A stretch of 49,964 nucleotides of DNA from Candidatus Hodarchaeota archaeon. Its GTDB lineage: Archaea; Asgardarchaeota; Lokiarchaeia; Sigyniarchaeales; SOKP01. Made by a program: the position numbers and the translations under genes. Shown in pieces: positions 28,231 through 44,117 of this stretch. The stretch is from assembly GCA_048887225.1 (NCBI GenBank), contig JBHLJY010000016.1, forward strand, positions 1-49,964, written 5' to 3'. How positions within the stretch are numbered: position 1 is the first letter of the stretch; the number at the start of each line of letters is the position of its first letter. The notes beneath the pieces were generated by a model. That model saw only the letters and a program-made list of their open reading frames with translations, was not told the DNA's origin and did no database searches.

Positions 28231-28317
28231 ATTATCGAGTTGGATCATTTAATTTGGAGGGATTATCGATTGAGATCATTTGACCTGTAAAAATTATCGA
28301 GCATGATCATTTAATTT
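28231..28317. repeat. Three phased direct repeats (31-bp period) of ATTATCGA-N4-GATCATTT, candidate operator array
   Basis: Copies start at 28231, 28262 and 28293, in the divergent intergenic region upstream of hdrA. Confidence 0.8.
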
Positions 28318-28601
28318 AAATATGTCAAAATACCTAAAAAATGTTTAGAAAAAGCCTATTATTAATGAAAATAAGTTTAACAATAAGTTATTACAGTTAA
28401 TTTTACAATCAATGAGAATTGGAATACGATAATTGAATTAAATTTCATTAAACGCTTATAATGATACAAATGATTAATTATAAGATAAATAGTTATTACT
28501 AATGATTAATTATTAGATATAAATATTTACTAAGTAAAGAATTATTTAATTTATAAAACAAAGGAATTAACAACTTTTTTGAGGTGGATGTGGAAAAAAA
28601 G

Positions 28602-30572
28602 ATGGAAAAAAATCACACGCAACGGTTTGAAACTAAAAATAACGATAAATTAAAAATAGGATACTATGCTTGCCATTGAGGAATAAACATTAGAGGAAAA
28701 GTTGATTGCGATCAATTAGTAAAATTTGCTGAAAGCCTTGATGATGTTGTTATTGCTAAAACCAATGCTTTTCTATGAACCGAGGCAGCTCAAAATGAAA
28801 TTATTGAGGATATCAAAGAAAAAAATTTAAATAGAATTGTTGCTTCGGCTTGAACACCACGTACACATGAGCCAATATACAGAGAATCAATAGCAAAAAC
28901 TGATTTAAGTCCTTATTATTTTCAAATGGTTAATGTAAGGGAACATTGTAGTTGGGTTACAGAAAGCAACGAAGATGCTTTAGAAAAAGCAAAAATCTTG
29001 GTTAAAAGTGGTATTGAAAGAGCTAAACGCTTAGAAGTTATTCCTATAAGAACGGTTCCAATAACTAAAGCGACTTTGGTAGTTGGAGGAGGAATAGCTG
29101 GCATGAATGCTGCTCTTGACCTTGCAAATCAAGGAATTAAAGTTTACTTAGTAGAGCAAAAAACGACAGTTGGAGGAAGAATGGCTCAATTAGATAGAAC
29201 CTTCCCAACCGACGATTGTGCAATTTGAATTTGTGGTCCAAAAATGTTAGAGGTAAGCCGAAACGAAAACATTGAAATCTTAAGCTATAGCGAAGTAAAG
29301 AAAGTTGAAGGCTATGTTGGGAATTATAATGTAACAGTTGAAAAAAAACCTCGATATATTACAGATGATTGTAATGGTTGCGGAGCTTGTACAGAAGTGT
29401 GTCCAACATATACCGCAAATTATTTCGATGAATATTTAGGGGCACGAAAGGCAATTGATATATCATTTGGCCAAGCAGTACCATTTTTGTACGATATCGA
29501 CCGAAGTACTTGTGTAGAGTGTTTTTCATGTGTTGATGCATGTGAGTTAGATGCTATTGATTTCAGTCAAGAGCCAAAAGAAGTTAATTTTGAGGTTGGA
29601 ACAATTATTATAGCAACTGGTTGGGACATATATGAACCTTTTGGAGAATATGGATATGGTGAATATGAGAACGTAGTTACACAAGCTCAATTAGAGAGAA
29701 TGCTTGCTCCGAATGGACCATTAGGTGGACACGTAAGGAGAATCTCAGATAATAAGAAACTAAAAGAAATTTTATTTATTCAGTGTGTAGGAAGTCGAGA
29801 CACTGAAAGAACGTATTGTAGTGGCGTTTGCTGTATGTTGGCTCTTAAAAATGCGAAATTACTTAAAGAGGAATACCCGGACGCAAATATAACAATTTGC
29901 TATATAGACATTAGAATAAACGAAAAAGGATTTGAAGAGTATTATCAACGTGCTAAAGATTCTGATATTCGATTGATTCGTGGAAAGGTTGGTGAAATTT
30001 TTGAAGATCCTGAGACTAAAAATGTTAATATTCGAGTTTATTCATCTTTAACTGATGAGATTATTAAAATTGACGCTGATTTAATAGTCTTATCTACCGC
30101 AGCGCTACCTTCGAAAGGAACTGAACAAATTGCTAAAATATTGAATTTAGATGTTGATAGAAATGGCTTTCTCACGGAATCTCACTTTGGTTTAATGCCA
30201 CAGGAAACAAAATCAAAAGGTATTTTTATAGCGGGTTTCGCTCAAGGACCAAAAAATATTTCATATTCCGTATCTCAAGCCAGAGCGGCAGCTAGTAAAG
30301 TGGCTGAATTAACTGCTCCTGGAGAAGCAGATCTTGAACTTATCATCGCTGAAGTTGACAAGGATTTTTGCATATCATGCAGAAGATGCGAAAGAGAATG
30401 CCCTAAAGAAGCAATAAAAATTGTTGATGAAGAGGGAGCTGTAGTAGATGAAATTAACTGCGATGGATGCGGAATATGCGCAAGTTGTTGTCCTACAGAA
30501 GCAATAGACATTCGATATTTTCGCGATGACCAATTATATGCTGAAATTTCAGGTATTTTGGAAGGAGGTTAA
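28602..30572 (+). CDS. hdrA: Heterodisulfide reductase subunit A, selenoprotein with 4 Sec (UGA)
   Basis: One continuous frame with TGA at 28677, 28776, 28851 and 29226 (ACHUGINI, FLUT, SAUTPRTHE, TDDCAIUICGPKM). Each aligns to Cys in the paralog at 35058. SD GAGGTG at 28581; alternative GTG start at 28590. Confidence 0.93.
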
Positions 30573-30576
30573 ATAG

Positions 30577-31038
30577 ATGAATTATAAATATAAAATTGTT
30601 ATGTTTGCATGCTTAAAGTGAGGTTATGGTGCTGCAGATTTAGCTGGCGTTTCTCGTATGAAATACACACCTTCAGTAAAAATCATCAAACTAAGGTGTA
30701 CTGGTAGAATTGATACAAAACACATCTTATACACCATCAAATCTGGAGCTGATGGTGTAATGGTTGTTGGATGACGCCCAAATGAGTGTCAATTTAAAAA
30801 TGGTAATTTTACAGCTCAAAAGCATGTGGATTTTGCAAATAGAATATTAGAATCTCGAGGTTTTGGCAGTCAAAGGGTCAACATGTATTGGCTAAGTAGT
30901 GCTGAATCTGAGAAATTAGTTAGAAGTGTTGAAGATGCTTATGAGAAAATTCGAAGAGCTGGTCCTAATCCAATTAATACTATAGATATTAAAACTAAGA
31001 GAAAAGTTAAAGAAAGCTTAACTACTCCCGTTGAATGA
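30577..31038 (+). CDS. mvhD: MvhD/VhuD [2Fe-2S] subunit, selenoprotein with 2 Sec
   Basis: ATG at 30577 after GGAGG. TGA at 30619 (ACLKUGYGAADLAG) and 30772 (VVGURPNEC) correspond to CNWCSYAGADLAG and SGCHIGDC of the Cys paralog at 38158. Confidence 0.93.
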
Positions 31039-31069
31039 GTCTTGTAAGTAAATCTTAGTTGCAAGATGA
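31035..31069 (+). promoter_or_regulatory. Eukaryote-like SECIS element
   Basis: AUGA (31035-38), stem GUCUUGUAA/UUGCAAGAU (9 bp), loop GUAAAUCUUAG containing AAA, then GA (31068-69). Directly 3' of two UGA-containing genes. Confidence 0.85.
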
Positions 31070-31140
31070 CAAGCCGTGCGATGGAGGGGGTTTTAAAACG
31101 AATATAATAAAAATTTAATATTGTAAAAATCGAAGGAAAT

Positions 31141-32643
31141 ATGGTTCAAATTTCAAAGGATTATAATTTTGATGGTATAACTCCAAAAGATCTGTTAGAG
31201 GCTACTTCATTAGCTACGGAAAATTTCCAAGTCAGAGCATTTTTAGAAGCTAAAGATGATATTATCAGACATGAAAAATTTAGCGAAAAAGAGTTTTATG
31301 ACATTTTGGATGCAATGATCGATGCTGAAACAGAACGTAAAATGATATTGGAAGAATTAATAGGTCAGGAACCATTATTTTTAAGAGAAATTATAAATAT
31401 AATTAAAAAATTTCCACCTGAAAACGTTATTAGAGATATAATTTACCTAAAAGAACAAGGTTACGTTGAAGAACTCGTTGAGATTAAAACTAAAAAAGTA
31501 ATTAAAAAGATTAAAGGCGAGGAAAAAGAAGTTGAAGAAAAGGAATATTTCTATAGATATCAAGTAAAAGACCAAAGTGATGACTTCAAGGAGAATTTTT
31601 TTGAACCTGTTTCGCTTGTTTTTGATAATGGTGTTTGTTGTAACTGTGGATGGTGTTCCTCAATATGTCCTTTAGATGCTATTACAGTTACAGCAGATTC
31701 TTTAGAAATTGACGATAATATATGTATTAAATGTGGGTTATGTTTTTCTGTTTGCCCGAGATCTTTTTCGATTGAACAAGCTTATAAGGCAATTAAAAAT
31801 TTAGATAAATCTCTTAAATTTTCTGAGAAAATTTTACATTATAAAAATACATATTCGGGCACTACAACTAACGAAGAAATTAAAAAAGTTCGACAAGACG
31901 GAGGAATAGTTACATCTCTACTAGAATATTTATTAAAGAATAAATTAGTTGATGCTATTATAGCAGTACAACATTCCAAGGATTTATGGAAACCAGAACC
32001 GGTAATTGTAGAGGATGTAAAAGATTTATACTCCACGAGTGGAACAAAATATGCTAATTCCCCTTCATTAGTGATTATTGATAAAGCAAAAAAGTATGAT
32101 AGTATAGCAATTGTAGGTGTTCCATGCATGATGAAGGCTATTGAGAAAGGTTCATTATTTCCAAGTGGGTTACCATTTTTTAAAAACATCAAATATAAAA
32201 TTGGACTTTTTTGCATGGAATCTTTTTCTTATGATAATATTATTAATTTGGTTAAAGACAAATTTAACAAAGACATTAATGATTTAATTAAAATGAATAT
32301 TGATAAGGGTAAATTTATAATAACTTTGAAAAGTGGAGAAGAATTGAATGTCCCTCTATCTGAAATTCAATCGTACGCTCGCGATACATGTCATTATTGT
32401 GAAGATTTAACCTCTGATTATGCTGACATATCAGTTGGTTCAATTGGTTCACAAGCTGGTTGGTCGTCCGTGATTACAAGGACAAAAAAAGGGGAAGAGA
32501 TTTACAAAGGAGCAATTAAGGATGATTTAATTGAATCAAAGAGCTTAAAAGATGTTAAACCGGGGCAATTTTTAGTAGAAAAGATTGGCGGGATTAAAAG
32601 AAATAAATGTAAACCATTTGAATTAAAAAAGAAATTAATCTAA
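31141..32643 (+). CDS. FrhB-family F420-binding subunit with N-terminal helical/wHTH-like domain and ferredoxin
   Basis: 2x CxxCxxCxxxCP, RQDGGIVT, SGTKY, VGVPC, IGLFCME, CHYCED, ADISVGSIG. Confidence 0.9.
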   Translation: MVQISKDYNFDGITPKDLLEATSLATENFQVRAFLEAKDDIIRHEKFSEKEFYDILDAMIDAETERKMILEELIGQEPLFLREIINIIKKFPPENVIRDIIYLKEQGYVEELVEIKTKKVIKKIKGEEKEVEEKEYFYRYQVKDQSDDFKENFFEPVSLVFDNGVCCNCGWCSSICPLDAITVTADSLEIDDNICIKCGLCFSVCPRSFSIEQAYKAIKNLDKSLKFSEKILHYKNTYSGTTTNEEIKKVRQDGGIVTSLLEYLLKNKLVDAIIAVQHSKDLWKPEPVIVEDVKDLYSTSGTKYANSPSLVIIDKAKKYDSIAIVGVPCMMKAIEKGSLFPSGLPFFKNIKYKIGLFCMESFSYDNIINLVKDKFNKDINDLIKMNIDKGKFIITLKSGEELNVPLSEIQSYARDTCHYCEDLTSDYADISVGSIGSQAGWSSVITRTKKGEEIYKGAIKDDLIESKSLKDVKPGQFLVEKIGGIKRNKCKPFELKKKLI

Positions 32644-32657
32644 GCTGAATTAATATT

Positions 32658-33770
32658 ATGACTCCAAAAAAATTCCAAGATTTAATTGATGAGGTTCATA
32701 ATAAAGGAATTTGTCAGGAATGTGGTGGATGCGTAAGTTTCTGTAGTTCAGCCGAATATGATGTGATCAAATTTGTAGATGGATATTCGTATCCAGTATT
32801 CATTCAAAAAGATAAATGTCTTGAGTGTGGAATTTGCTATTGTATTTGTCCGCAAACTCATATTTTAGATGAGTCTTTAAATCAAACATATAAATTTTCA
32901 GATTATTCTTCTATGCCTCTTGGCTTTTTTGAGGAAATTTGTTCTTGCCAAGCTACAGATAAAGAATTTCTAAAATATGGTACAGATGGAGGTGTAGTAA
33001 ATTCAATTATAAATTATTTGTTAGAAAAAAAAATTGTTGACGGAGCAATAGTATCTAAAGTTGAGGGGCCATTTTCCAGAGAAGCTATGTTTGCTGATAA
33101 AAAAAATGAGTTACTTAAGGCCTCAGGTACTAAATTGGAGATATCTTCACATTTAGACGAAATTCAGAAATTCTGTACTTATACTCATTCAATTCCGAAA
33201 TTAAATCATTATAAATTCAAAAAACTAGTTGTTGTAGGTACTCCATGTCAGCTTTATACAATCAGATGTATGCAAAATTTGGGAGTCACACCTTCACAAA
33301 ATATTGAAATTTGTCTTGGGTTGTTTTGTTATGAGAATTTTCAATTTGATAAAATTCAAGTGAAGAAATTTGAAAAAGATTTTGCTATCGAATTCGAAAA
33401 TATCGAAAAGATAAATATCAGAGAAGATTTAATCTTAAAATTGAGAGATGATGGTTCTGGAGAAAGAATAGTTCACATTCCATTTAATCACTTAACTGAT
33501 TATATACGTCCTGCTTGTAAAGCTTGCAATGACTTTACCAATATCTATGCAGATATTTCCTTTGGAGGTCTTGGTTCACAAGAGAAATATACTACTGTAA
33601 TCCCACGAACTGAAAAAGGAAATGAAATTCTAAAAAAAGCAAAAAGTGATGGAATAATTCGTTGTTTGGATTTAAATGAGACAAGTAAAAATAATATAGA
33701 AAAACTAGTATCTCAATATTCTCAAATGAAAATAAATCGAAAAAAAAATTTCATGAATGAATTAAAGTAG
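32658..33770 (+). CDS. FrhB-family F420-binding subunit
   Basis: CQECGGC, TDGGVV, VGTPCQ, LGLFCYENF, CKACND, ADISFGGLG. Confidence 0.9.
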   Translation: MTPKKFQDLIDEVHNKGICQECGGCVSFCSSAEYDVIKFVDGYSYPVFIQKDKCLECGICYCICPQTHILDESLNQTYKFSDYSSMPLGFFEEICSCQATDKEFLKYGTDGGVVNSIINYLLEKKIVDGAIVSKVEGPFSREAMFADKKNELLKASGTKLEISSHLDEIQKFCTYTHSIPKLNHYKFKKLVVVGTPCQLYTIRCMQNLGVTPSQNIEICLGLFCYENFQFDKIQVKKFEKDFAIEFENIEKINIREDLILKLRDDGSGERIVHIPFNHLTDYIRPACKACNDFTNIYADISFGGLGSQEKYTTVIPRTEKGNEILKKAKSDGIIRCLDLNETSKNNIEKLVSQYSQMKINRKKNFMNELK

Positions 33771-33774
33771 CGAA

Positions 33775-35058
33775 GTGAAAATTACGACAGAAATTAAAAG
33801 GAACTCTAAATTAGAAGAAAAAACCGTTGATGATATTGAATTTTATTTAAACAAGAGTTACCATCCTACTTTAAGAAATTTGTTAAAAAGATGTTATCAG
33901 TGTGGTCGATGTAGTGGTGTTTGCCAATTATCAAAAGTCCAAAAGTTTACACCTAGTAGAATTATTCAAATGGTATTAGAAGGCTTTGAAGATAAAATTA
34001 TAGAAAGTGGAGTATTATGGGATTGTTTGACCTGCAACACATGCCTTCAACATTGTCCAGAAAATATTAATTTTGCGGATATTGTGAGAAATGCAAAATA
34101 TAGGATGAGAAATTCAGCTAATCAAAATCCTGATGAATATATTGCTCATAAAGGTATTTATACTACGATATCCGAGATAATGAGTCAATCTAATATCAAT
34201 CCAGAAAGAAATCTTGATTGGATCCCAAAAGAATGTAAAATTTCGAAAAAAGGAAATATTTTATATTATGTGGGATGTTTACCCTTTTTTAATTACGAAT
34301 TTGAGGATTTAACTAACATTGCAACTAGTACGTTAAAAATAATATGTCAAGTTGAAAAAGAACCAATAGTAGTTTTAAAAGAAGAGAATTGTTGCGGACA
34401 TGACCTATATTGGGGTCAGGGAAAACTTAAGACGTTCATAAAGTTAGCAAAAAAAAATATAGATATGTTCAAAGACGCTGGAATCTCTAAAATTATAACT
34501 GCATGTGCTGAGTGTTATCGAACATTTAAAGTGGATTATCCAGATATATTTGAGGATTTTAGTGAAAAGTTCGAGGTTCAGCATATTATAGAATATGTAT
34601 ATGAAAAATGGAAGCAAAATAAAATCGATTTTATAACTCCAAAAGAAAGTGATGAAAGAATTACCTTCACTTATCATGATCCTTGTAGACTGAGCAGATT
34701 TTTACCTAAGGATAACAAAATAATGGAAAAAGTCAGAGAAATCTTTAAAGAATTTAGAGAATTAGGTTATGATTTTAATGAAATGGAACATAATAAAGAA
34801 AATTCATTATGTTGCGGCGTTAATTCTTGGATGAATTGTAATGAAAAATCAAAAGCACTACGATATAAACGCATGTTAGAAGCTAAAGCTGCTGGTAATA
34901 TCATGGTAACATCTTGTCCAAAATGTAATATACATTTGAGTTGTATTCAAAACGATTTTGAAGATCTTTCTTCAATAAAGATTTTAGATTTCTCTGAATT
35001 TTTAATTGATCATGTAGAATTAAAGTCATCAGATAAAATTGAGGAGGTTGAGAAATAA
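33775..35058 (+). CDS. HdrD-like (HdrC-type ferredoxin + CCG domains) Fe-S oxidoreductase
   Basis: CYQCGRCSGVC, CLTCNTCLQHCP, YVGC, CCG, TACAEC, YHDPC, CCG, TSCPKC. Confidence 0.88.
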   Translation: MKITTEIKRNSKLEEKTVDDIEFYLNKSYHPTLRNLLKRCYQCGRCSGVCQLSKVQKFTPSRIIQMVLEGFEDKIIESGVLWDCLTCNTCLQHCPENINFADIVRNAKYRMRNSANQNPDEYIAHKGIYTTISEIMSQSNINPERNLDWIPKECKISKKGNILYYVGCLPFFNYEFEDLTNIATSTLKIICQVEKEPIVVLKEENCCGHDLYWGQGKLKTFIKLAKKNIDMFKDAGISKIITACAECYRTFKVDYPDIFEDFSEKFEVQHIIEYVYEKWKQNKIDFITPKESDERITFTYHDPCRLSRFLPKDNKIMEKVREIFKEFRELGYDFNEMEHNKENSLCCGVNSWMNCNEKSKALRYKRMLEAKAAGNIMVTSCPKCNIHLSCIQNDFEDLSSIKILDFSEFLIDHVELKSSDKIEEVEK

Positions 35059-38000
35059 TGGAAGGCTCAGTTCTAGTTATCGGAGGGGGTATTGCTGGAA
35101 TACAAGCATCTCTTGATTTAACTGAATTAGGATTCAAAGTTTATTTAGTAGAAAGAAATCCTTCAATTGGAGGAAGGATGGCACAGTTAGATAAAACTTT
35201 TCCAACAAATGACTGTTCACTTTGTATTCTTGCACCTAAAATGGTGGAAATTTTTCGGAATCCTAACATTGAACTCTTAACTTATCACGAAGTTAAAAAA
35301 GTTGCTGGAGAACTTGGAGATTTTTCTGTTACAATTCTTAAGAAACCACGATACATTGATGAAACAAAATGTAAAGGTTGTGGTGACTGCGCTGCTAAAT
35401 GCCCTAAAATAGAAGTTCCAAATCTTTTCGATATGAATTTAGGTAAAAGAAAGTCTGTGTATATTCCATTTCCTCAAGCGGTTCCGCCCATTTATTTAAT
35501 TGATCCTGAGTTATGTTTAAAAATAACTAAAGGAGTATGCGGGGTATGCGAAAAAGTTTGCGCTGCTGAAGCTATTGATTATGAACAAAAACCTCAAGAA
35601 ATTAATTTAAAAGTAGGAGCAATTGTTGTTGCAACTGGTTTTGATATGCCAGCAGAAAAATTAAATTCAAGATGGGGTTATCATTATAAAAATGTTATTA
35701 GTGCTCTTGAATATGAGAGAATTTTATGCGCATCTGGACCGTTTGGGGGTCATGTATTAAGACCAAGCGATGAGAAAGAACCTGAAATAATTGCGTTTAT
35801 TCAATGTGCCGGCTCAAGGGATTTACATGAGCAAATACCTTATTGTTCAAGCGTATGTTGTATGTATACTGCTAAAGAATCAATTATCACTAAAGAACAT
35901 TCTGAAAGATCAAAATGCTTTGTATTTCGACATGATATTAGAGCTTTCGGTAAAAATTTCTATGAATTTACTCAAAGAGCTCAAGAAGAATACGGAGTAA
36001 AATATTTTCAAACCAAAATTAGTAAAATTGAAGAAGATCCTGAAACTAATGACCTAATTATTCACTATGAAGATTTAAAAAATGGAGGTTTCAATGATTT
36101 CAGAGCTAATTTAGTGATTTTAGCCACGCCATTGGTTCCTTCTGATGGGGCTAAGGAATTATCCGAGATTTTAAATATAGAACAAGATGAATATGAATTT
36201 TTCAAAGAAAAATCATATTTTAACAAATCTTCATCCTCGAGAGAAGGTGTGTTCTTATGCGGTTTCTGTCAAGGTCCAATGGATATACCTGAGACTGTAG
36301 CAGATGCAAGTGGAGTGGCAGGCCAAGTAGCTGCTTTATTAACCACTACAAAATTTAGTCAAGTAAAAGAAAAAGCATTAGAAGTACCAGAAAAAGAAGT
36401 AAAAATTACAGATGAACCAAGAATTGGTGTTTTAATTTGCCACTGTGGTATCAATATTGGCAAGTATGTCGAAGTCCCCAACATAGCCGAATATGTACGA
36501 ACATTACCTAATGTTGTACATTGTGAAGATAATTTATATTCATGTAGTTCCGATTCCCAGGCAAGAATTAAAGAATTAATTAAAGAGCATAATTTGAATA
36601 GATTTATTGTAGCATCGTGTACACCAAGAACTCATGAAGCACTATTCCAAGAAACATGTGAAGAATCAGGTTTAAATAAATATCTCTTTGAGATGGTAAA
36701 TATTCGTGACCAATGTTCATGGGTTCATATGACCGAATATGAGGCAGCCACTCAGAAAGCTAAAGATTTAATTAGAATGGCTGTTGCAAAATCAAGATTA
36801 TTAAAGCCTCTTAAAGAAGAATTATTACAAATAACTCCTACTGCATTAATTATTGGTGGTGGAATTTCAGGAATGAGCGCAGCTTTAAACATTGCTAATC
36901 AAGGATTTAAAACCTTCATTGTTGAGAAGGAGAAATTTCTAGGTGGAAACTTAAATTACTTAAATGTCTTATATCCTATTGAAGAAAGTGCTTCAGATTT
37001 CCTTAATGAAACTATTACAAGGGTAAAGAATAATAAAAATATTCAGATTTTCTTGGGTTCAAAAATAAAAGAAATAAAAGGATATGTTGGAAATTATTTA
37101 GTCTCTATTATTGATTCAAATAACGAAACTCACGAACTAAGTATAGGAACAATTATTGTTGCTACAGGAGGGCAGGAATACAAACCTAAGGATATTTTTC
37201 AATATGGTAATGGAAATAAGAATGTTATAACTCAATTAGAATTAGAAAAAATATTAAAAGAAAAAGGAAAATCTTGGCTTGATGGAATAAATCGTATTAC
37301 AACAATTTTATGTGTTAATGCAAGACAAAATGAAGGAATAACATATTGCTCTAATATTTGTTGTGGAAATTCTATAAAAAACTTAGGGCTTCTAAAAAAG
37401 TTAAAACCTGAACTTGAACTAGTTGTTCTTTACAGAGATCTTCAAATGGCAAAAAAAAAGTATGAACAATACTATCGCGAACATAGAAAAAATGCTATAT
37501 TTTTAAGGTATGATCTAGATAAAATGCCAATTATAGAACAAAATAGTAAAAATCCCGAAAAATATAGAATAAAAGTATTTGATACAAATTTACAAGATTA
37601 TATAGAATTAGATACTGATTTAATTATTTTATCAACTCCAATGATTCCTGCTGATAATTTAGAAGAATTAGCAAAAATGCTTAAAGTTCCTTTAGATAAA
37701 AACGGATTTTTCTTAGAAGCCCATGTCAAATTGAGACCGTTGGATTTTGCGACTGATGGTATTTTCTTATGCGGATGTGCTCAATGGCCAAAAAACGTGC
37801 AAGATTCGATTTCCCAGGCAAATGGTGCAGCAGGAAGAGCTAGTAGGTTTTTAAGCGCTAAAGAGATTACAACTTCAGGAATAGTCGCAGAGGTAAATCC
37901 AATAGATTGTATCGGATGTGGGAAATGCGAATCTGTCTGTCCATACAACGCTATTGAACTTTTAGAATCAGTAAAAGATTTTGAAGAAGTAAGTTTAGTA

Positions 38001-38141
38001 GTAAAAAAATCCTTTGTTAATTCTGCATTATGTAAAGGTTGCGGAACTTGTGCAGCTACTTGCCCTAATGGGGCAATATCGATAATGCAGTATGATTTTG
38101 ACCAAATATCTGCTATGATTGAATCATATTTACTTAAATAA
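35058..38141 (+). CDS. hdrA: Large HdrA-family flavoprotein with two FAD modules, all-Cys
   Basis: Two GGGxxG motifs, GGRMAQLDKTFPTNDC, internal CHCGINI/ASCTPRTHE module, C-terminal ferredoxin. Confidence 0.92.
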   Translation: MEGSVLVIGGGIAGIQASLDLTELGFKVYLVERNPSIGGRMAQLDKTFPTNDCSLCILAPKMVEIFRNPNIELLTYHEVKKVAGELGDFSVTILKKPRYIDETKCKGCGDCAAKCPKIEVPNLFDMNLGKRKSVYIPFPQAVPPIYLIDPELCLKITKGVCGVCEKVCAAEAIDYEQKPQEINLKVGAIVVATGFDMPAEKLNSRWGYHYKNVISALEYERILCASGPFGGHVLRPSDEKEPEIIAFIQCAGSRDLHEQIPYCSSVCCMYTAKESIITKEHSERSKCFVFRHDIRAFGKNFYEFTQRAQEEYGVKYFQTKISKIEEDPETNDLIIHYEDLKNGGFNDFRANLVILATPLVPSDGAKELSEILNIEQDEYEFFKEKSYFNKSSSSREGVFLCGFCQGPMDIPETVADASGVAGQVAALLTTTKFSQVKEKALEVPEKEVKITDEPRIGVLICHCGINIGKYVEVPNIAEYVRTLPNVVHCEDNLYSCSSDSQARIKELIKEHNLNRFIVASCTPRTHEALFQETCEESGLNKYLFEMVNIRDQCSWVHMTEYEAATQKAKDLIRMAVAKSRLLKPLKEELLQITPTALIIGGGISGMSAALNIANQGFKTFIVEKEKFLGGNLNYLNVLYPIEESASDFLNETITRVKNNKNIQIFLGSKIKEIKGYVGNYLVSIIDSNNETHELSIGTIIVATGGQEYKPKDIFQYGNGNKNVITQLELEKILKEKGKSWLDGINRITTILCVNARQNEGITYCSNICCGNSIKNLGLLKKLKPELELVVLYRDLQMAKKKYEQYYREHRKNAIFLRYDLDKMPIIEQNSKNPEKYRIKVFDTNLQDYIELDTDLIILSTPMIPADNLEELAKMLKVPLDKNGFFLEAHVKLRPLDFATDGIFLCGCAQWPKNVQDSISQANGAAGRASRFLSAKEITTSGIVAEVNPIDCIGCGKCESVCPYNAIELLESVKDFEEVSLVVKKSFVNSALCKGCGTCAATCPNGAISIMQYDFDQISAMIESYLLK

Positions 38142-38157
38142 AAAATAGGAATACATT

Positions 38158-38595
38158 ATGCCAAAAGCGAAAACGAAAAAACTAAAGAAAGAATTTAACC
38201 CAGAAATTTTAGTTTTTTGTTGTAATTGGTGTTCTTATGCTGGAGCCGATTTAGCGGGAGTATCTCGATTTCAATATCCTCCTAATATGAGAATTGTTCG
38301 TGTAATGTGTTCTGGGAGAGTCGATCCCTCATTTATTTTGAAAGCGCTTAAAGATGGAGCAGATGGTGTTCTCATTAGTGGATGCCATATAGGTGATTGC
38401 CATTATATTTCTGGAAATGAATATGCTAAAGAAAGATTTGAGCGATTACATAAAATTATTATTAAACAATTAGGAATTGATGAAAAGCGCGTAAGACTTG
38501 AATGGGTAAGTGCTTCTGAAGGCAAACGATTTGCTGATCTAATTACAGAATTCACAAATGATATAAAAGAATTAGGGCCTTTAAGAGCCATTTAA
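38158..38595 (+). CDS. mvhD: MvhD [2Fe-2S] subunit, Cys form
   Basis: CCNWCSYAGADLAG, MCSGRVD, GCHIGDCHY, WVSASEG. Confidence 0.95.
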   Translation: MPKAKTKKLKKEFNPEILVFCCNWCSYAGADLAGVSRFQYPPNMRIVRVMCSGRVDPSFILKALKDGADGVLISGCHIGDCHYISGNEYAKERFERLHKIIIKQLGIDEKRVRLEWVSASEGKRFADLITEFTNDIKELGPLRAI

Positions 38596-39004
38596 ATTAT
38601 ATCGATAAATTTTACTAAATCCTAAAATTTCACTTTTTTTCTAATTTTATTTATTGATGTAATAAAAGGATCATTAAAAAAAATTCTCTTTCTGATCTCG
38701 ATAATTCTAGTATGTTTCATGATCGATATCAATCACATTTACTTAAAATAGTATCGACTTCGCGAGGAATGCTAGAAATAGATAAGAATAAGAATTAATT
38801 ATGTCTGATCCCGATCACAAATAATGGTTAAATAACGAATATGCAAAAATTGCACTTAAATTTATGTTTGATATTGATAAAAATATTTATATACTAAAGT
38901 GTATTTAATTATTGATTAACAAAAAAACTATTTCCAATTTGATTGTATTGATTTTTGCCATTTTTTACATATTTATCTAAATCCTTTTAAGAGGGGGAAG
39001 TTTA

Positions 39005-41767
39005 ATGGAAGGATCTGTATTGGTAATTGGAGGAGGTATAGCCGGGATACAAGCATCCTTGGATCTGACGGATTTAGGATTTAAAGTTTACTTAGTAGAG
39101 AGAAATCCATCAATAGGTGGTCGTATGGCTCAATTTGATAGATTATTCCCTGCTACCGACTGCAGTTTATGTGTTCTCACTCCAAAAATGGTTTCTATAT
39201 ATAGGAATCCAAATATTGAATTGTTTACTCTAACGGAAGTTAAAAAAGTATTAGGAGAACCAGGGAATTTTATAGTTACTGTGATTAAGAAGCCAAGATA
39301 TATTGATGAGACAAAATGCAGAGGATGTGGGGATTGTGCTGCTAAATGCCCGAAGGTGGAAGCTCCAAATATTTTTGATATGAATTTAGGGAAAAGAAAA
39401 TCTATATATCTTCCATTTCCACAAGCAACTCCTCCAGTATATTTAATTGATCCTGAGTTGTGTTTATATCTAAACAGAGATGTATGTGGAGTATGTCAAA
39501 AAGTCTGCAAAGCTGGAGCTATAGATTATGAACAAATACCCCAAGAAATAGAATTAAAAGTTGGAGCTATTGTAGTTGCTACAGGATTCGAGATGCTTGG
39601 GGAGGAATTGCCATCAAGATGGGGTTATAAGTATGAAAATGTTGTTAATGGATTAGAATATGAAAGAATTTTATGTCCCACTGGTCCCTTTGGAGGTCAA
39701 ATTTTACGACCAAGTGATATACAAATACCTGAAAAGATAGCTTTTATTCAATGTGCTGGTTCTGGATATTTAGAAAAAAGCGTACCGTATTGTTCAAGAG
39801 TTTGTTGTATGTATACAGCAAAAAATGCAATTCTTACAAAAGAAAGGTATGAAGATATTCAAATTTCTATATTTAGACATAATATTAGAGTGTTTGGAAA
39901 AAACTTTTATGAATATACTAAATCAGCTCAAGAGGATTACAATATAAGATATCAAAATGCAACAATTAAATATATTAACGAAGATCCAGAAACTAAAGAC
40001 ATAATTATTAAATATGAAGATTTAAAAACAGGAGAGAGAAATAAAGAATTTCGGGCTAATTTAGTAGTATTGGCTGCTCCATTGGTTCCAGCTAAAAGTA
40101 CTGAAGAATTAGCAAAAATATTAGGTATTAAATTAGATTTTAATAAATTTTTTAAAGAAGCATCTTATTTTAATAAATCCTTATCTACAAGAAAAGGAAT
40201 ATACTTATGTGGATTTTGCCAAGGACCAATGAATATATCGGAGACTGTGGTGAATGCAAGCGCAGTGGCAGCTCAAGTTGCTATATTATTGAGTTCTGCT
40301 AAATTTACTCAAGTTAAAGAGAGAGAAAGTGATATCCTACCAAAGAAAGAAATTATAAAGATTACTCCTCGGGCACTAATCATTGGTGGTGGAGTTTCTG
40401 GGATGACAGCAGCACTAAATATTAATAATCAAGGCTTCGAAACGATAATTGTGGAAAAAGAAGAAGAACTAGGTGGTAATTTAAAATATATTAACATTCT
40501 ATATCCAATACGCCAAAAGGCTGAAGCCTTTCTAAATAACCTTCTAAAAAAAATTGAAATGAATGAACGCATTCATGTATATTTTAACTCAAAAATTAAA
40601 AATGTTTCAGGCTCAATTGGTAATTATGATATAACTATAGTAGATTCAAATAAAAATATTCAAAATTTCAAAGTTGGAACAATTATAATCGCAACTGGAA
40701 GTCAGGAATTTAAACCACGTGGAATATTTCAATATAATCCAAATAATAAAAGTATTTTGACTCAATTAGAATTGGAGCAGCGTCTTAAAAATAACGACAC
40801 ATCATGGCTTGACAATTTAAAACATATCACAATAATTATGTGTGTTTATGCGAGATACAAGTTCGGGTTACGTTATTGTTCTAATGTATGTTGCAGTAAT
40901 ACTATTAAAAATATTGATATTTTAAAAGAATTAAAGCCAGAACTTGAAATCGTAGTCCTCTTTAGAGATCTTCACATGGCTAAAAAGGAGTGCGAAGAAA
41001 TGTGCAGAGAAAGAAAAAAAATTGCTAATTATCTAAGATACAATGTAGAAAATATTCCAGAAATTACGAAAATTAAAAACAATCCAGAGAAATACGCTAT
41101 TATATTACAGAACGATTTAAAACCAAATGAATATATAAATTTTGAAACAGATCTTATAATTTTATCAACTCCAATGATTCCATCTGAGGGTTTACAAGAA
41201 TTAGCAAATATATTAAGTGTTCCGTTAGATGAAAATGGATTTTTTATAGAAGCTCACACAAAATTACGACCATTAGATTTTGCAGCACATGGGATTTTCA
41301 TATGTGGTTGTGCTCAATGGCCAAAAAATGTTCAAGATTCAATAGCAGAAGCAAATGGCGCAGCAGGAAGAGCAAGTAGATTCTTAAGTATCAAAGAGAT
41401 ATCAACAACAAAATTGGAATTTCTTTCATTTATGCTTTCTATCGAGTGCTTCTTTAAAGACATGGTCATTAATATTGAAAAGTGTAATGGTTGCGGAAGA
41501 TGCGTAGAAGTTTGTTCTTTTAAAGCAATCAATCTTGTTGATATGAAGAAAGATTTTGAAGATATAAGTCTGCCCATTAAAAAGGCATTTATAAATCCTG
41601 CGATATGTAAAGGGTGTGGGAGGTGTGCAGCAACGTGTAGGTTAAAAGCAATAGACGCAAGACATTACGACTTTAAACAAATTTCTTCAATAATAGATCC
41701 ATATTTTTTAGAAAGAAAAATGTCAAAGGAAGAAAACGAAGAACAACCTTTATTTTCCGTTTTGTAA
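39005..41767 (+). CDS. hdrA: HdrA-family paralog lacking the internal CHC/CTPRTHE module
   Basis: N-terminus nearly identical to the 35058 ORF; two GGGxxG motifs; shorter central region. Confidence 0.9.
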   Translation: MEGSVLVIGGGIAGIQASLDLTDLGFKVYLVERNPSIGGRMAQFDRLFPATDCSLCVLTPKMVSIYRNPNIELFTLTEVKKVLGEPGNFIVTVIKKPRYIDETKCRGCGDCAAKCPKVEAPNIFDMNLGKRKSIYLPFPQATPPVYLIDPELCLYLNRDVCGVCQKVCKAGAIDYEQIPQEIELKVGAIVVATGFEMLGEELPSRWGYKYENVVNGLEYERILCPTGPFGGQILRPSDIQIPEKIAFIQCAGSGYLEKSVPYCSRVCCMYTAKNAILTKERYEDIQISIFRHNIRVFGKNFYEYTKSAQEDYNIRYQNATIKYINEDPETKDIIIKYEDLKTGERNKEFRANLVVLAAPLVPAKSTEELAKILGIKLDFNKFFKEASYFNKSLSTRKGIYLCGFCQGPMNISETVVNASAVAAQVAILLSSAKFTQVKERESDILPKKEIIKITPRALIIGGGVSGMTAALNINNQGFETIIVEKEEELGGNLKYINILYPIRQKAEAFLNNLLKKIEMNERIHVYFNSKIKNVSGSIGNYDITIVDSNKNIQNFKVGTIIIATGSQEFKPRGIFQYNPNNKSILTQLELEQRLKNNDTSWLDNLKHITIIMCVYARYKFGLRYCSNVCCSNTIKNIDILKELKPELEIVVLFRDLHMAKKECEEMCRERKKIANYLRYNVENIPEITKIKNNPEKYAIILQNDLKPNEYINFETDLIILSTPMIPSEGLQELANILSVPLDENGFFIEAHTKLRPLDFAAHGIFICGCAQWPKNVQDSIAEANGAAGRASRFLSIKEISTTKLEFLSFMLSIECFFKDMVINIEKCNGCGRCVEVCSFKAINLVDMKKDFEDISLPIKKAFINPAICKGCGRCAATCRLKAIDARHYDFKQISSIIDPYFLERKMSKEENEEQPLFSVL

Positions 41768-41890
41768 ATCAAAATTTGGGGAGGGATTCATTTACATTTT
41801 TTCATTAATTTGTTTTTCCATTTTAATGTCGGTGCTAGCGATATGAAAATGGAAGAAAATAAGGAATTCGAAACAAGAAATTTGATACCT

Positions 41891-42124
41891 TTAAGTTTTT
41901 AAAATTTTCAATGCTTTATCAATTGTTAAATTTTTTAATTTATACGCTTTTTCATAATGTTCCGAACAGAACCACTCAGCATAGGGTGGATGTCCTACCA
42001 TTCCTTCTCTTTCCATAGTTTCGTCCCATTCAATATCAGAAGAACGCTTTTTAAAATATATTAAGCCACCATCATCCTTATCCATAAAATTTTTATCGCA
42101 TATAGCGCATATTGGAGGTCTCAA
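41891..42124 (-). CDS. Small Cys/His hypothetical protein
   Basis: PPICAIC...GHP...WFCSEH; 16 nt downstream of the GH31 gene. Confidence 0.7.
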   Translation of the reverse strand: MRPPICAICDKNFMDKDDGGLIYFKKRSSDIEWDETMEREGMVGHPPYAEWFCSEHYEKAYKLKNLTIDKALKILKT

Positions 42125-42140
42125 AAAATCATCTCTTGTT

Positions 42141-44117
42141 TTATTCTATATTTTTTATTTGTTCAAACAACTCTGAAAATTTTGAATTTATCCTAAAAAA
42201 TATTGGGGGTTGACCTATAGGTGCATTTACTTTTCTCCACCCTTTTTTATATTTTTCTCCAGACCAAATATGAATCCAAATATCGTCTGGAAAATATACC
42301 TTCCATTTATTTTTATTCGGTTTAATGACCGGAGCAATAAGTAAATCGCTTCCTAATAAAAATTGATATTTAATATGATGAACTTCAGAGTCATTTTCAT
42401 AATGTAAATACAAAGCCCTTATTAGTGGATAACCATTATTTTTATATTCATTAGAAAGATGCTTAAAATAAGGTTTTAGATGTACATAAATTTTACTCAT
42501 CTTTGCAAAATGTTCAAGGCATTCATCATCAGAATCAAATTGCCAGTTCAAATCAGGATTAACACCCTCATGAGATCTCATAACAGGACTGAAAACTTCC
42601 AATTCAGCCCAACGCATAAATAGTTCTTTATCGCGCCTAATTTCTTTAAAAGTGTGAAAACCGCCGATATCTGTATGGAAATATCCTATACCACATATGC
42701 CTAATGAGATTCCAGCAGGTATTACCGATGCTAATCCATCATCTATACTCCAATTTACGAGTTGATCTCCTGCCCAAACTAATGTTGTATACTTGGAGAT
42801 TCCAGAATAGCCTGCTCGAGTAAAAAACACAATTTCTCCTATTTTATTAGCTTCTTTAATAGCTTCATATATGGTTTTTGCCCAAATCACAGGATATTTA
42901 TTATGGAAAAGCTCTAGATCTTCTCCAGAAGATAAAACCGCATCAATAGGGAGATATTCACCATAATCTGCCATCCAACCATCTAAACCGATATTGATCA
43001 TATTTCTTTTTATTAATAATTTCAACCAATCAATCGCTTTGCTATTTGATAAATCAATCATAGTTGCTTTTTGACTATCAGTTCGAACATCATAATCATT
43101 TCCTTCTTGATCTTTTATGCAAAAACCTTTTTTTGAAGCCACCTTAAATTGTTCACTATCCATAGCTAAGAATGAATTAATATATCCAAGAAATCTGATT
43201 CCCTTTTGTTTCAATTTTTTTATGAAGGATGGTAAATCTGGATAAATTTTATTATCATATTCCCAATTCCACAATAAACGCTTGCCTGAAGGCATCATGC
43301 GGATCCCTTGCCAATCTTGGCACCATACACCAGCAATTTTAACACCTTTTTCGCCTGCTTGATTTATTTTTTGTTCTACAATATCAGTTCCGCCTTGTAT
43401 TCCTAGCCAAACTCCATCATACACCCAATCAGGCAATTCTGGTTGCCGACCTAAGTAATCAGATAATTTATTTACTACTTCAAGAGCAGTATCAAATTTA
43501 CCAATTATAATTCTTTCAGGTATACACCATATATATAACTCATGAAAATCTTCATTGTCAAAGTTAAATTTTGAATAACTTGTTGCTAATACATGACAAT
43601 AATAATTATTTGAAGATACAAATGTAGGCTGAGGATAATATGTAGTATACCAATCCCCTGTTATAGGTGGCGAACCCCTTCCAATTCCTTGTTCTTCTAC
43701 CCACAAGGGAACTTCTTTTCCCCTTAAATTCAATTCTGAATATTGTTCCCCACATCCATATATTGCTTCATCATATTGAGCTGGGATTTTTATCCAAAAT
43801 CGATTTATTTGTTTATTTGAGCACTCTGGTTTTATAATTAAAAAGCTACCTGAATCAACTAGAGAAACGTTCAATTCCGCTTCTGAAGAGAAAAATCTGA
43901 GTGATATTTTATTTTCAGATTTAGATATTATTTCATAATTTTCTAAATTGAATTCATTTTTTAATTTCTCTTTAATTCTAAAATGACCATAATTGCTTTT
44001 ATAGCGAGCTGTGCCAATCCCTATCTTAAAACATGGTTGATTTGAAACATGATGTAAAATTAAATAATCTTTATAAAAGAAGTTAAAACCGTCTGATAAA
44101 ATTTCAATTCGAATCAT
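42141..44117 (-). CDS. yihQ: GH31 alpha-glycosidase, sulfoquinovosidase (YihQ)-like
   Basis: GCGEQYS, YYPQPTFVSS, LGIQGG, QDWQG...GKRLLWNW, GWMADYGEYLP (nucleophile), WAGDQ (acid/base), MRSHEG. Confidence 0.8.
   Translation of the reverse strand: MIRIEILSDGFNFFYKDYLILHHVSNQPCFKIGIGTARYKSNYGHFRIKEKLKNEFNLENYEIISKSENKISLRFFSSEAELNVSLVDSGSFLIIKPECSNKQINRFWIKIPAQYDEAIYGCGEQYSELNLRGKEVPLWVEEQGIGRGSPPITGDWYTTYYPQPTFVSSNNYYCHVLATSYSKFNFDNEDFHELYIWCIPERIIIGKFDTALEVVNKLSDYLGRQPELPDWVYDGVWLGIQGGTDIVEQKINQAGEKGVKIAGVWCQDWQGIRMMPSGKRLLWNWEYDNKIYPDLPSFIKKLKQKGIRFLGYINSFLAMDSEQFKVASKKGFCIKDQEGNDYDVRTDSQKATMIDLSNSKAIDWLKLLIKRNMINIGLDGWMADYGEYLPIDAVLSSGEDLELFHNKYPVIWAKTIYEAIKEANKIGEIVFFTRAGYSGISKYTTLVWAGDQLVNWSIDDGLASVIPAGISLGICGIGYFHTDIGGFHTFKEIRRDKELFMRWAELEVFSPVMRSHEGVNPDLNWQFDSDDECLEHFAKMSKIYVHLKPYFKHLSNEYKNNGYPLIRALYLHYENDSEVHHIKYQFLLGSDLLIAPVIKPNKNKWKVYFPDDIWIHIWSGEKYKKGWRKVNAPIGQPPIFFRINSKFSELFEQIKNIE

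Follow-up and report, generated by a model that had tools for sequence, protein, structure and literature searches.

The closest described counterpart of the locus analysed here is the HdrA-VhuD tandem of Lokiarchaeota, in which one selenocysteine insertion sequence (SECIS) of the type termed lokiSECIS, located after VhuD, goes with up to six UGA codons spread over approximately 2 kb of a presumed polycistronic mRNA (Mariotti et al. 2016, Mol Biol Evol 33:2441, PMC4989117). The same paper drew the comparison with selenoprotein P (SelP), explained the avoidance of UGA stops by hdrA, and reported that existing SECIS tools likewise miss lokiSECIS. The arrangement was widened across the Asgard archaea by Huang et al. 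(2024, ISME J, PMC11227280), who named it hdrA-frhD and described a type I eSECIS-like structure; a 2026 review added no experimental test. Both the arrangement and its interpretation as a shared SECIS were already published in 2016. The instance described here lies in the window, that is, the complete 49,964-base contig C16 (JBHLJY010000016.1) of the assembly GCA_048887225.1 of a Candidatus Hodarchaeota archaeon (3.27 Mb, 49 contigs, 30% G+C), whose nearest relatives are metagenome-assembled genomes labelled Promethearchaeota or Promethearchaeia (Loki-type Asgard archaea). The locus very probably encodes a HdrA-MvhD (VhuD) selenoprotein pair on one mRNA, with six UGAs read as selenocysteine (Sec) via a single lokiSECIS behind mvhD.

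Compared with the Lokiarchaeota tandem (PMC4989117), nothing essential is different. Gene order, strand, a very short gap and a UAA stop in hdrA are shared, as are up to four Sec residues in HdrA, the canonical one among them, and two in VhuD (predicted here), and one element, with the same AUGA, 9-bp stem, 11-nt loop ending in AG, and GA, stands behind VhuD only. The use of a core UGA as the mvhD stop, a three-helix junction, an frhB-like gene behind the element, and orthologs with seven UGAs are not found in the text of PMC4989117 or PMC11227280; the former reports an overlap of stop and core UGA for VhuU.1 only. A likeness also exists to the VhuD SECIS of Methanococcales and Methanopyrus, which is located 3' of vhuD, serves two UGAs approximately 50 codons apart, and is flanked by AUGA and GA/AA motifs (Mariotti et al., PMC4989117). 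The locus differs from those with a canonical archaeal SECIS, as the GAA_A bulge (pattern of Huang et al.) had 0 matches on the plus strand of 28301-31200, and hdrA here has no SECIS of its own, unlike methanococcal hdrA (Mariotti et al., PMC4989117).

The hdrA-mvhD pair and its UGA codons

The genes and their in-frame UGAs, numbered 1 to 6, are located as follows.

28602-30572, plus strand: hdrA, heterodisulfide-reductase subunit A type flavo-FeS protein; 656 aa by translation with UGA read as Sec
28677-28679, plus strand: UGA 1, HdrA residue 26; Cys of 9sfi_A by alignment, UGA in most of 72 orthologs
28776-28778, plus strand: UGA 2, HdrA residue 59; Cys of 9sfi_A by alignment, UGA in about two-thirds of the orthologs
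28851-28853, plus strand: UGA 3, HdrA residue 84; Cys of 9sfi_A by alignment, UGA kept in the orthologs
29226-29228, plus strand: UGA 4, HdrA residue 209, the canonical HdrA Sec position; aligned to X (Sec197) of 9sfi_A
30564-30569, plus strand: GGAGGT, Shine-Dalgarno-like motif for mvhD within the 3' end of hdrA, 7 nt ahead of the ATG at 30577 (sequence)
30577-31038, plus strand: mvhD/vhuD (FlpD family), 153 aa up to the core UGA (Pfam, NCBIfam, PDB)
30619-30621, plus strand: UGA 5, MvhD residue 15; X (Sec) of 9sfi_K by alignment, UGA in 72 of 72 orthologs
30772-30774, plus strand: UGA 6, MvhD residue 66; X (Sec) of 9sfi_K by alignment, UGA in 72 of 72 orthologs

The hdrA frame starts at ATG 28602 (with GTG codons at 28584 and 28590 as alternatives) and ends at TAA 30570-30572; its product was identified by HdrA-type matches in Pfam and NCBIfam and by a 677-bit match to PDB 9sfi_A across residues 18-654. 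MvhD was identified by Pfam FlpD (145 bits), NCBIfam VhuD and PDB 9sfi_K (129 bits). All six internal UGAs align with Cys or Sec in solved Hdr-Vhu structures (Sec197 is described for the M. maripaludis Hdr-Vhu structure; PMC13518236), and they almost certainly encode Sec. A first-pass annotation of this DNA had counted six UGAs over the two cistrons, which was borne out, with the addition that a seventh in-frame UGA of mvhD (31036-31038) lies inside the AUGA core of the SECIS, TAA being 9 nt further on. This core UGA is the probable stop of mvhD; the product would have 156 aa, gaining U-V-L, if translation continued to the TAA at 31045-31047. The mvhD stop coincides with the core UGA in 9 of 19 aligned elements, the one of the window counted.

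The spacing between the two genes, which are on the same strand, is 4 nt (30573-30576), as annotated before, and together with the GGAGGT motif within hdrA it points to coupled translation. Moreover, hdrA and mvhD were adjacent without exception in approximately 100 loci. Among 72 complete ortholog pairs, 21 carried five UGAs, 47 carried six and 4 carried seven, with mvhD always contributing two. The seven-UGA pairs (for example, L047 and L053) have five UGAs in hdrA, two in mvhD and one SECIS, and seven is one above the 'up to six' of PMC4989117. The stop codon of hdrA in the 72 orthologs was TAA in 58 cases, TAG in 14 and TGA in none, while TGA ends 14% of the long open reading frames (ORFs) in this genome; since the orthologs are not independent sequences, avoidance of TGA stops by hdrA is only suggested by these counts.

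The lokiSECIS element behind mvhD

The first-pass annotation had placed a lone SECIS-like hairpin after mvhD, and it was found again at the same position.

31035-31069, plus strand: lokiSECIS, consisting of AUGA, a 9-bp stem, the 11-nt loop GUAAAUCUUAG, and GA (sequence, covariance models, covariation)

Its parts are the AUGA at 31035-31038, the stem formed by 31039-31047 with 31059-31067 (zero mismatches, two G-U pairs), the loop at 31048-31058 and the GA at 31068-31069. Whereas the AUGA, the 9-bp stem and the GA had been annotated correctly, the 'AAA loop' had not: the loop GUAAAUCUUAG comprises 11 nt, with AAA at loop positions 3-5 and AG as its last bases. UGA 1 is located 2358 nt 5' of the AUGA, in agreement with the earlier estimate of about 2.36 kb, and UGA 6 lies 263 nt 5' of the element. 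The lokiSECIS was defined by a 9-bp stem, an 11-nt loop, AUGA before, GA after, and a final loop G following an A (Mariotti et al. 2016, PMC4989117), and a G[U/G]AAA loop start was given as a variant by Huang et al. (2024, PMC11227280); the AUGA, 9-bp stem, 11-nt loop, A-rich loop start, final G and GA of the lokiSECIS and type I eSECIS-like structures are all present in the element of the window. The AUGA was unchanged across 27 aligned elements.

Two covariance models were used for searching: R1, built from 27 elements with the window's own sequence among them, and, because of this inclusion, R2, trained solely on ten elements that follow other genes in the genome. With filters off, R1 gave a single match in the window, at 31031-31073 (51.6 bits; next-best 14 bits elsewhere), and R2 matched the same positions at 42.3 bits (E 1e-7; next-best 15 bits). 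No second SECIS was thus found in hdrA, in mvhD or in the 5' region by either model in the 50-kb window, and no further R1 elements were found in the 5' region or coding sequence (CDS) of 21 related loci (filters off) or of 80 more (default filters). The strict motif occurred in 10 copies in the 3.27-Mb genome versus 0 in each of six simulated genomes. All 11 lokiSECIS-like relaxed matches in the genome closely follow the 3' end of an ORF that has UGAs in frame, the genes being four hdrA-mvhD pairs, one Sec-SelD and several small proteins. The folding energy of the hairpin by itself was unremarkable (z about -1.2 to -1.7).

The same element was present 0-30 nt past mvhD in 18 of 20 loci from related genomes. 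A further set comprised 80 loci, of which 77 had exactly one strong match, always just after mvhD; the contigs of the remaining three stop ahead of the element position, giving 77/77 among the loci that reach that far. Covariation of the hairpin among orthologs, which the first-pass annotation had proposed as a check, was present: compensatory changes were seen in five of the nine stem pairs in 19 loci (95% of cells paired, versus 37-56% with the partner strand slid), and in all nine in 72 distinct sequences (94% paired versus 45-58% slid), the latter alignment having been fitted to the model, which favours pairing. The observed covariation score was reached by 0 of 500 shuffles. Within the genome, the element follows mvhD in 4/4 hdrA-mvhD pairs that contain UGAs and in 0/7 that are UGA-free, and it was likewise absent from 20 UGA-free pairs of relatives (0/20).

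The other search proposed in the first-pass annotation, for separate SECIS elements within hdrA or mvhD, yielded none by covariance models, patterns, or folding after each UGA. The 70 nt past each UGA, where a bacterial-type hairpin would be expected, folded no better than shuffles (z -1.5 to +1.5). A relaxed scan of 28301-31200 for AUGA/GUGA...GA/AA gave 6 matches versus 4.2 +/- 3.1 expected, three of which were alternative descriptions of the true element, differing in stem and loop length. The candidates at 28412-28441 and 29992-30028 were rejected because each has a 7-bp A/U stem that contains a mismatch and because such a number is within chance; the latter did not fold either (z +2.3). 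In three orthologs R1 matched hdrA weakly (10-12.6 bits, E 2.6-9.3) at comparable positions; these matches were taken as noise. The Rfam SECIS families gave no match, either at the gathering score across the whole window or at E<=10 in 28300-31300, the sole Rfam matches being four on the opposite strand with E 2.4-5.8, far under the gathering scores, which were discarded.

The element resembles the eukaryotic SECIS (Rfam RF00031, SECIS_1) and the SELENOP system in its AUGA...GA core, expected to form a kink-turn, in the unpaired A's of the apical loop, in its position 3' of the coding sequence, in its presumed kilobase reach and in the several UGAs that it would serve. It differs in having a shorter upper stem, an extra 3' arm and no Rfam eukaryotic SECIS match at E<=10, and the earlier label 'eukaryote-type' is therefore retained as a resemblance only. 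SELENOP is furthermore one ORF with two SECIS elements, whereas here two ORFs go with one element. SBP2 was not detectable in Lokiarchaeota (Mariotti et al., PMC4989117).

Weighing of the alternative explanations

If six UGAs are read via one lokiSECIS, hdrA and mvhD would be translated from one bicistronic or longer mRNA, and the kink-turn-type AUGA/GA element would recruit a Sec-specific elongation factor with Sec-tRNA, with or without an adaptor protein. The factor would be delivered to ribosomes paused at the UGAs of either cistron, 0.26-2.36 kb upstream, implying a presumptive action across the hdrA stop, processive Sec insertion and a factor that binds the element. A ribosome arriving at the core UGA would already have unwound the element, so that this UGA would act as the mvhD stop, while hdrA would have to end in UAA or UAG because a UGA there would be recoded too.

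Most components needed for such a mechanism were found in the genome, namely SepSecS (397 bits), a SelB-type factor (contig C4, 38949-39836; 249 bits, above the family cut-off), a SelD that contains Sec and a PSTK-like protein that at 156 bits falls short of the equivalog cut-off, together with about a dozen SECIS-bearing genes. Several points nevertheless weigh against the preferred reading. When RF01852 was run on this genome and 15 relatives, tRNA-Sec was found neither here nor in nine other genomes of the genus, whereas it was present at 51-67 bits in five genomes that belong to other families within the order; it was also missed in this genome by aragorn (introns, lowered thresholds), by pattern scans for G+C islands and the anticodon loop, and by BLAST and nhmmer with tRNA-Sec queries from three related genomes. 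The models and patterns used to look for other signals detect only elements that resemble known SECIS, so an unrelated signal in hdrA would escape them. Pairs with UGAs in hdrA and none in mvhD numbered 0 among 27 pairs, and cross-cistron action can therefore not be isolated by comparison. Finally, both the co-transcription of the two genes and the insertion of Sec at their UGAs are predictions from sequence. With regard to the tRNA, detection was generally poor in this genome (29 matches in all), and tRNA-Sec may be unassembled, intron-bearing or atypical. A 184-nt tRNA-like match beside SepSecS was considered as tRNA-Sec and rejected, being an intron-bearing tRNA that aragorn calls tRNA-Ile(UAU). 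This gene, on contig C4 (46936-47119, minus strand), lies near those for SepSecS and the SelB-type factor; it contains a long insertion, and a segment resembling the anticodon arm is duplicated in it.

The missing tRNA-Sec is also what speaks for the view that the UGAs are not Sec codons at all, being subject to near-cognate readthrough as Cys, Trp or another residue, or belonging to decaying pseudogenes. This is very improbable, as the UGAs are confined to columns aligned with Cys or Sec and are kept in 72 species-level genomes in frames that are otherwise intact, TGA serves as a normal stop in the rest of the genome, the other Sec genes listed above are encoded, and the SECIS strictly co-occurs with UGA-containing genes. 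More weight, although still small, is due to the proposal that the element behind mvhD serves mvhD alone while the hdrA UGAs use another signal, in hdrA or in the 5' leader. SECIS elements need not be located downstream, the one of M. jannaschii fdhA being in the 5' untranslated region (UTR), and the preferred reading has to postulate action across a stop codon with restart, the searches having been confined to SECIS-like shapes. We consider the proposal unlikely, given that none of the hdrA UGAs is followed by a structure that is stable or conserved and that the 5' region and CDS had no match in the window, the 21 related loci or the 80 more. RNAz on HdrA alignments gave Mariotti et al. (PMC4989117) nothing else.

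A stand-alone Sec-hdrA of the same genome, whose 3' end carries a lokiSECIS-like element, bears on this question as well. The gene, on contig C12 (approximately 40275-42391, minus strand), has five UGAs in frame, of which two are adjacent, and is not followed by mvhD; directly behind it is its own SECIS-like three-helix junction with the core AUGC...AA, not AUGA...GA (element L168:676-718 and gene L168:741-2792, both minus strand), which was the one non-training match of R1 in the genome search. It follows that hdrA does use this type of signal, and that the signal goes with the end of whichever cistron is the last to contain UGAs. Transcription of hdrA and mvhD apart, leaving the hdrA mRNA without an element, is highly improbable: archaeal promoters may fall inside coding sequence, and nothing specific favours separate transcripts here, against which stand the 4-nt spacing, the ribosome-binding motif inside hdrA and a pair that is always adjacent in the approximately 100 loci. 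That the hairpin is a chance stem-loop or a mere terminator could be argued from its unremarkable folding energy, and is effectively refuted by the 10 strict copies versus 0 in six simulated genomes, the E of 1e-7 with the independent model R2, the covariation of the stem and the absence of the element from UGA-free paralogs.

Surroundings of the element and wider meaning

Alignment of 19 orthologs indicated further conserved pairing around the lokiSECIS, with a lower helix (P1) and a short third arm (P3), and genes continue downstream.

31026-31029, plus strand: 5' strand of the lower helix P1 (UCCC) (RNAalifold, 19 orthologs)
31074-31084, plus strand: short third arm P3 (CCG-UGCGA-UGG) (RNAalifold, 19 orthologs)
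31087-31094, plus strand: 3' strand of P1 (GGGG, 31087-31090) followed by a U-run (RNAalifold)
31141-32643, plus strand: FrhB/FdhB-like gene, first of six further redox genes reaching 41767 (Pfam)

In P1, 82% of cells were paired with little covariation, and in P3 91% were paired with covariation at the third pair. Equivalents of P1 and P3, with different sequences, accompany all other lokiSECIS elements of the genome. In a thermodynamic test of the three-way junction, real flanks scored 50/73 versus 32-42 for shuffled ones; as the separation in this control was weak, the support for P1 and P3 comes from conservation and modest covariation. A T-run follows the G-run in most aligned orthologs, and the U-run may be a weak archaeal termination signal, with a putative role as terminator. 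The third arm is not mentioned in the text of PMC4989117 or PMC11227280.

The FrhB-like gene starts 71 nt past the SECIS element, and the order hdrA-mvhD-SECIS-frhB-like was kept in 28/28 loci, with the frhB-like gene approximately 110-160 nt beyond mvhD. Because a conserved gene follows on the same strand, location of the SECIS in a 3' UTR is not established, and the element may be intercistronic. The six genes in 31141-41767 are tightly spaced redox genes on the same strand as the SECIS, all without UGA; they encode two FrhB/FdhB-like proteins, a HdrB/C-like CCG protein, HdrA-like proteins of 1027 aa and 920 aa, and a Cys-type MvhD. Possibly, although we hold this to be doubtful, the functional unit is the three-helix junction, with P1 enclosing the SECIS arm and P3, rather than the published two-helix eukaryote-like hairpin. 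The junction would then occupy a spacer between two cistrons of a longer hdrA-mvhD-frhB-... operon and would recode the UGAs of the two upstream cistrons, with its core UGA ending the second of these. An Asgard-specific SECIS-binding factor, in place of the missing SBP2, could dock on the extra arm.

The significance of the arrangement belongs to the papers of 2016 and 2024 (PMC4989117, PMC11227280), to which the window adds one clean instance, comparative confirmation (77/77 loci with the element, and 27 UGA-free pairs without it) and anatomical details. It is among the more striking examples of recoding on record, a single RNA element apparently giving a new meaning to as many as six or seven stops in two ORFs more than 2 kb away. 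The arrangement comes from the archaeal lineage that is closest to eukaryotes and is relevant to the origin of the eukaryotic SECIS system.

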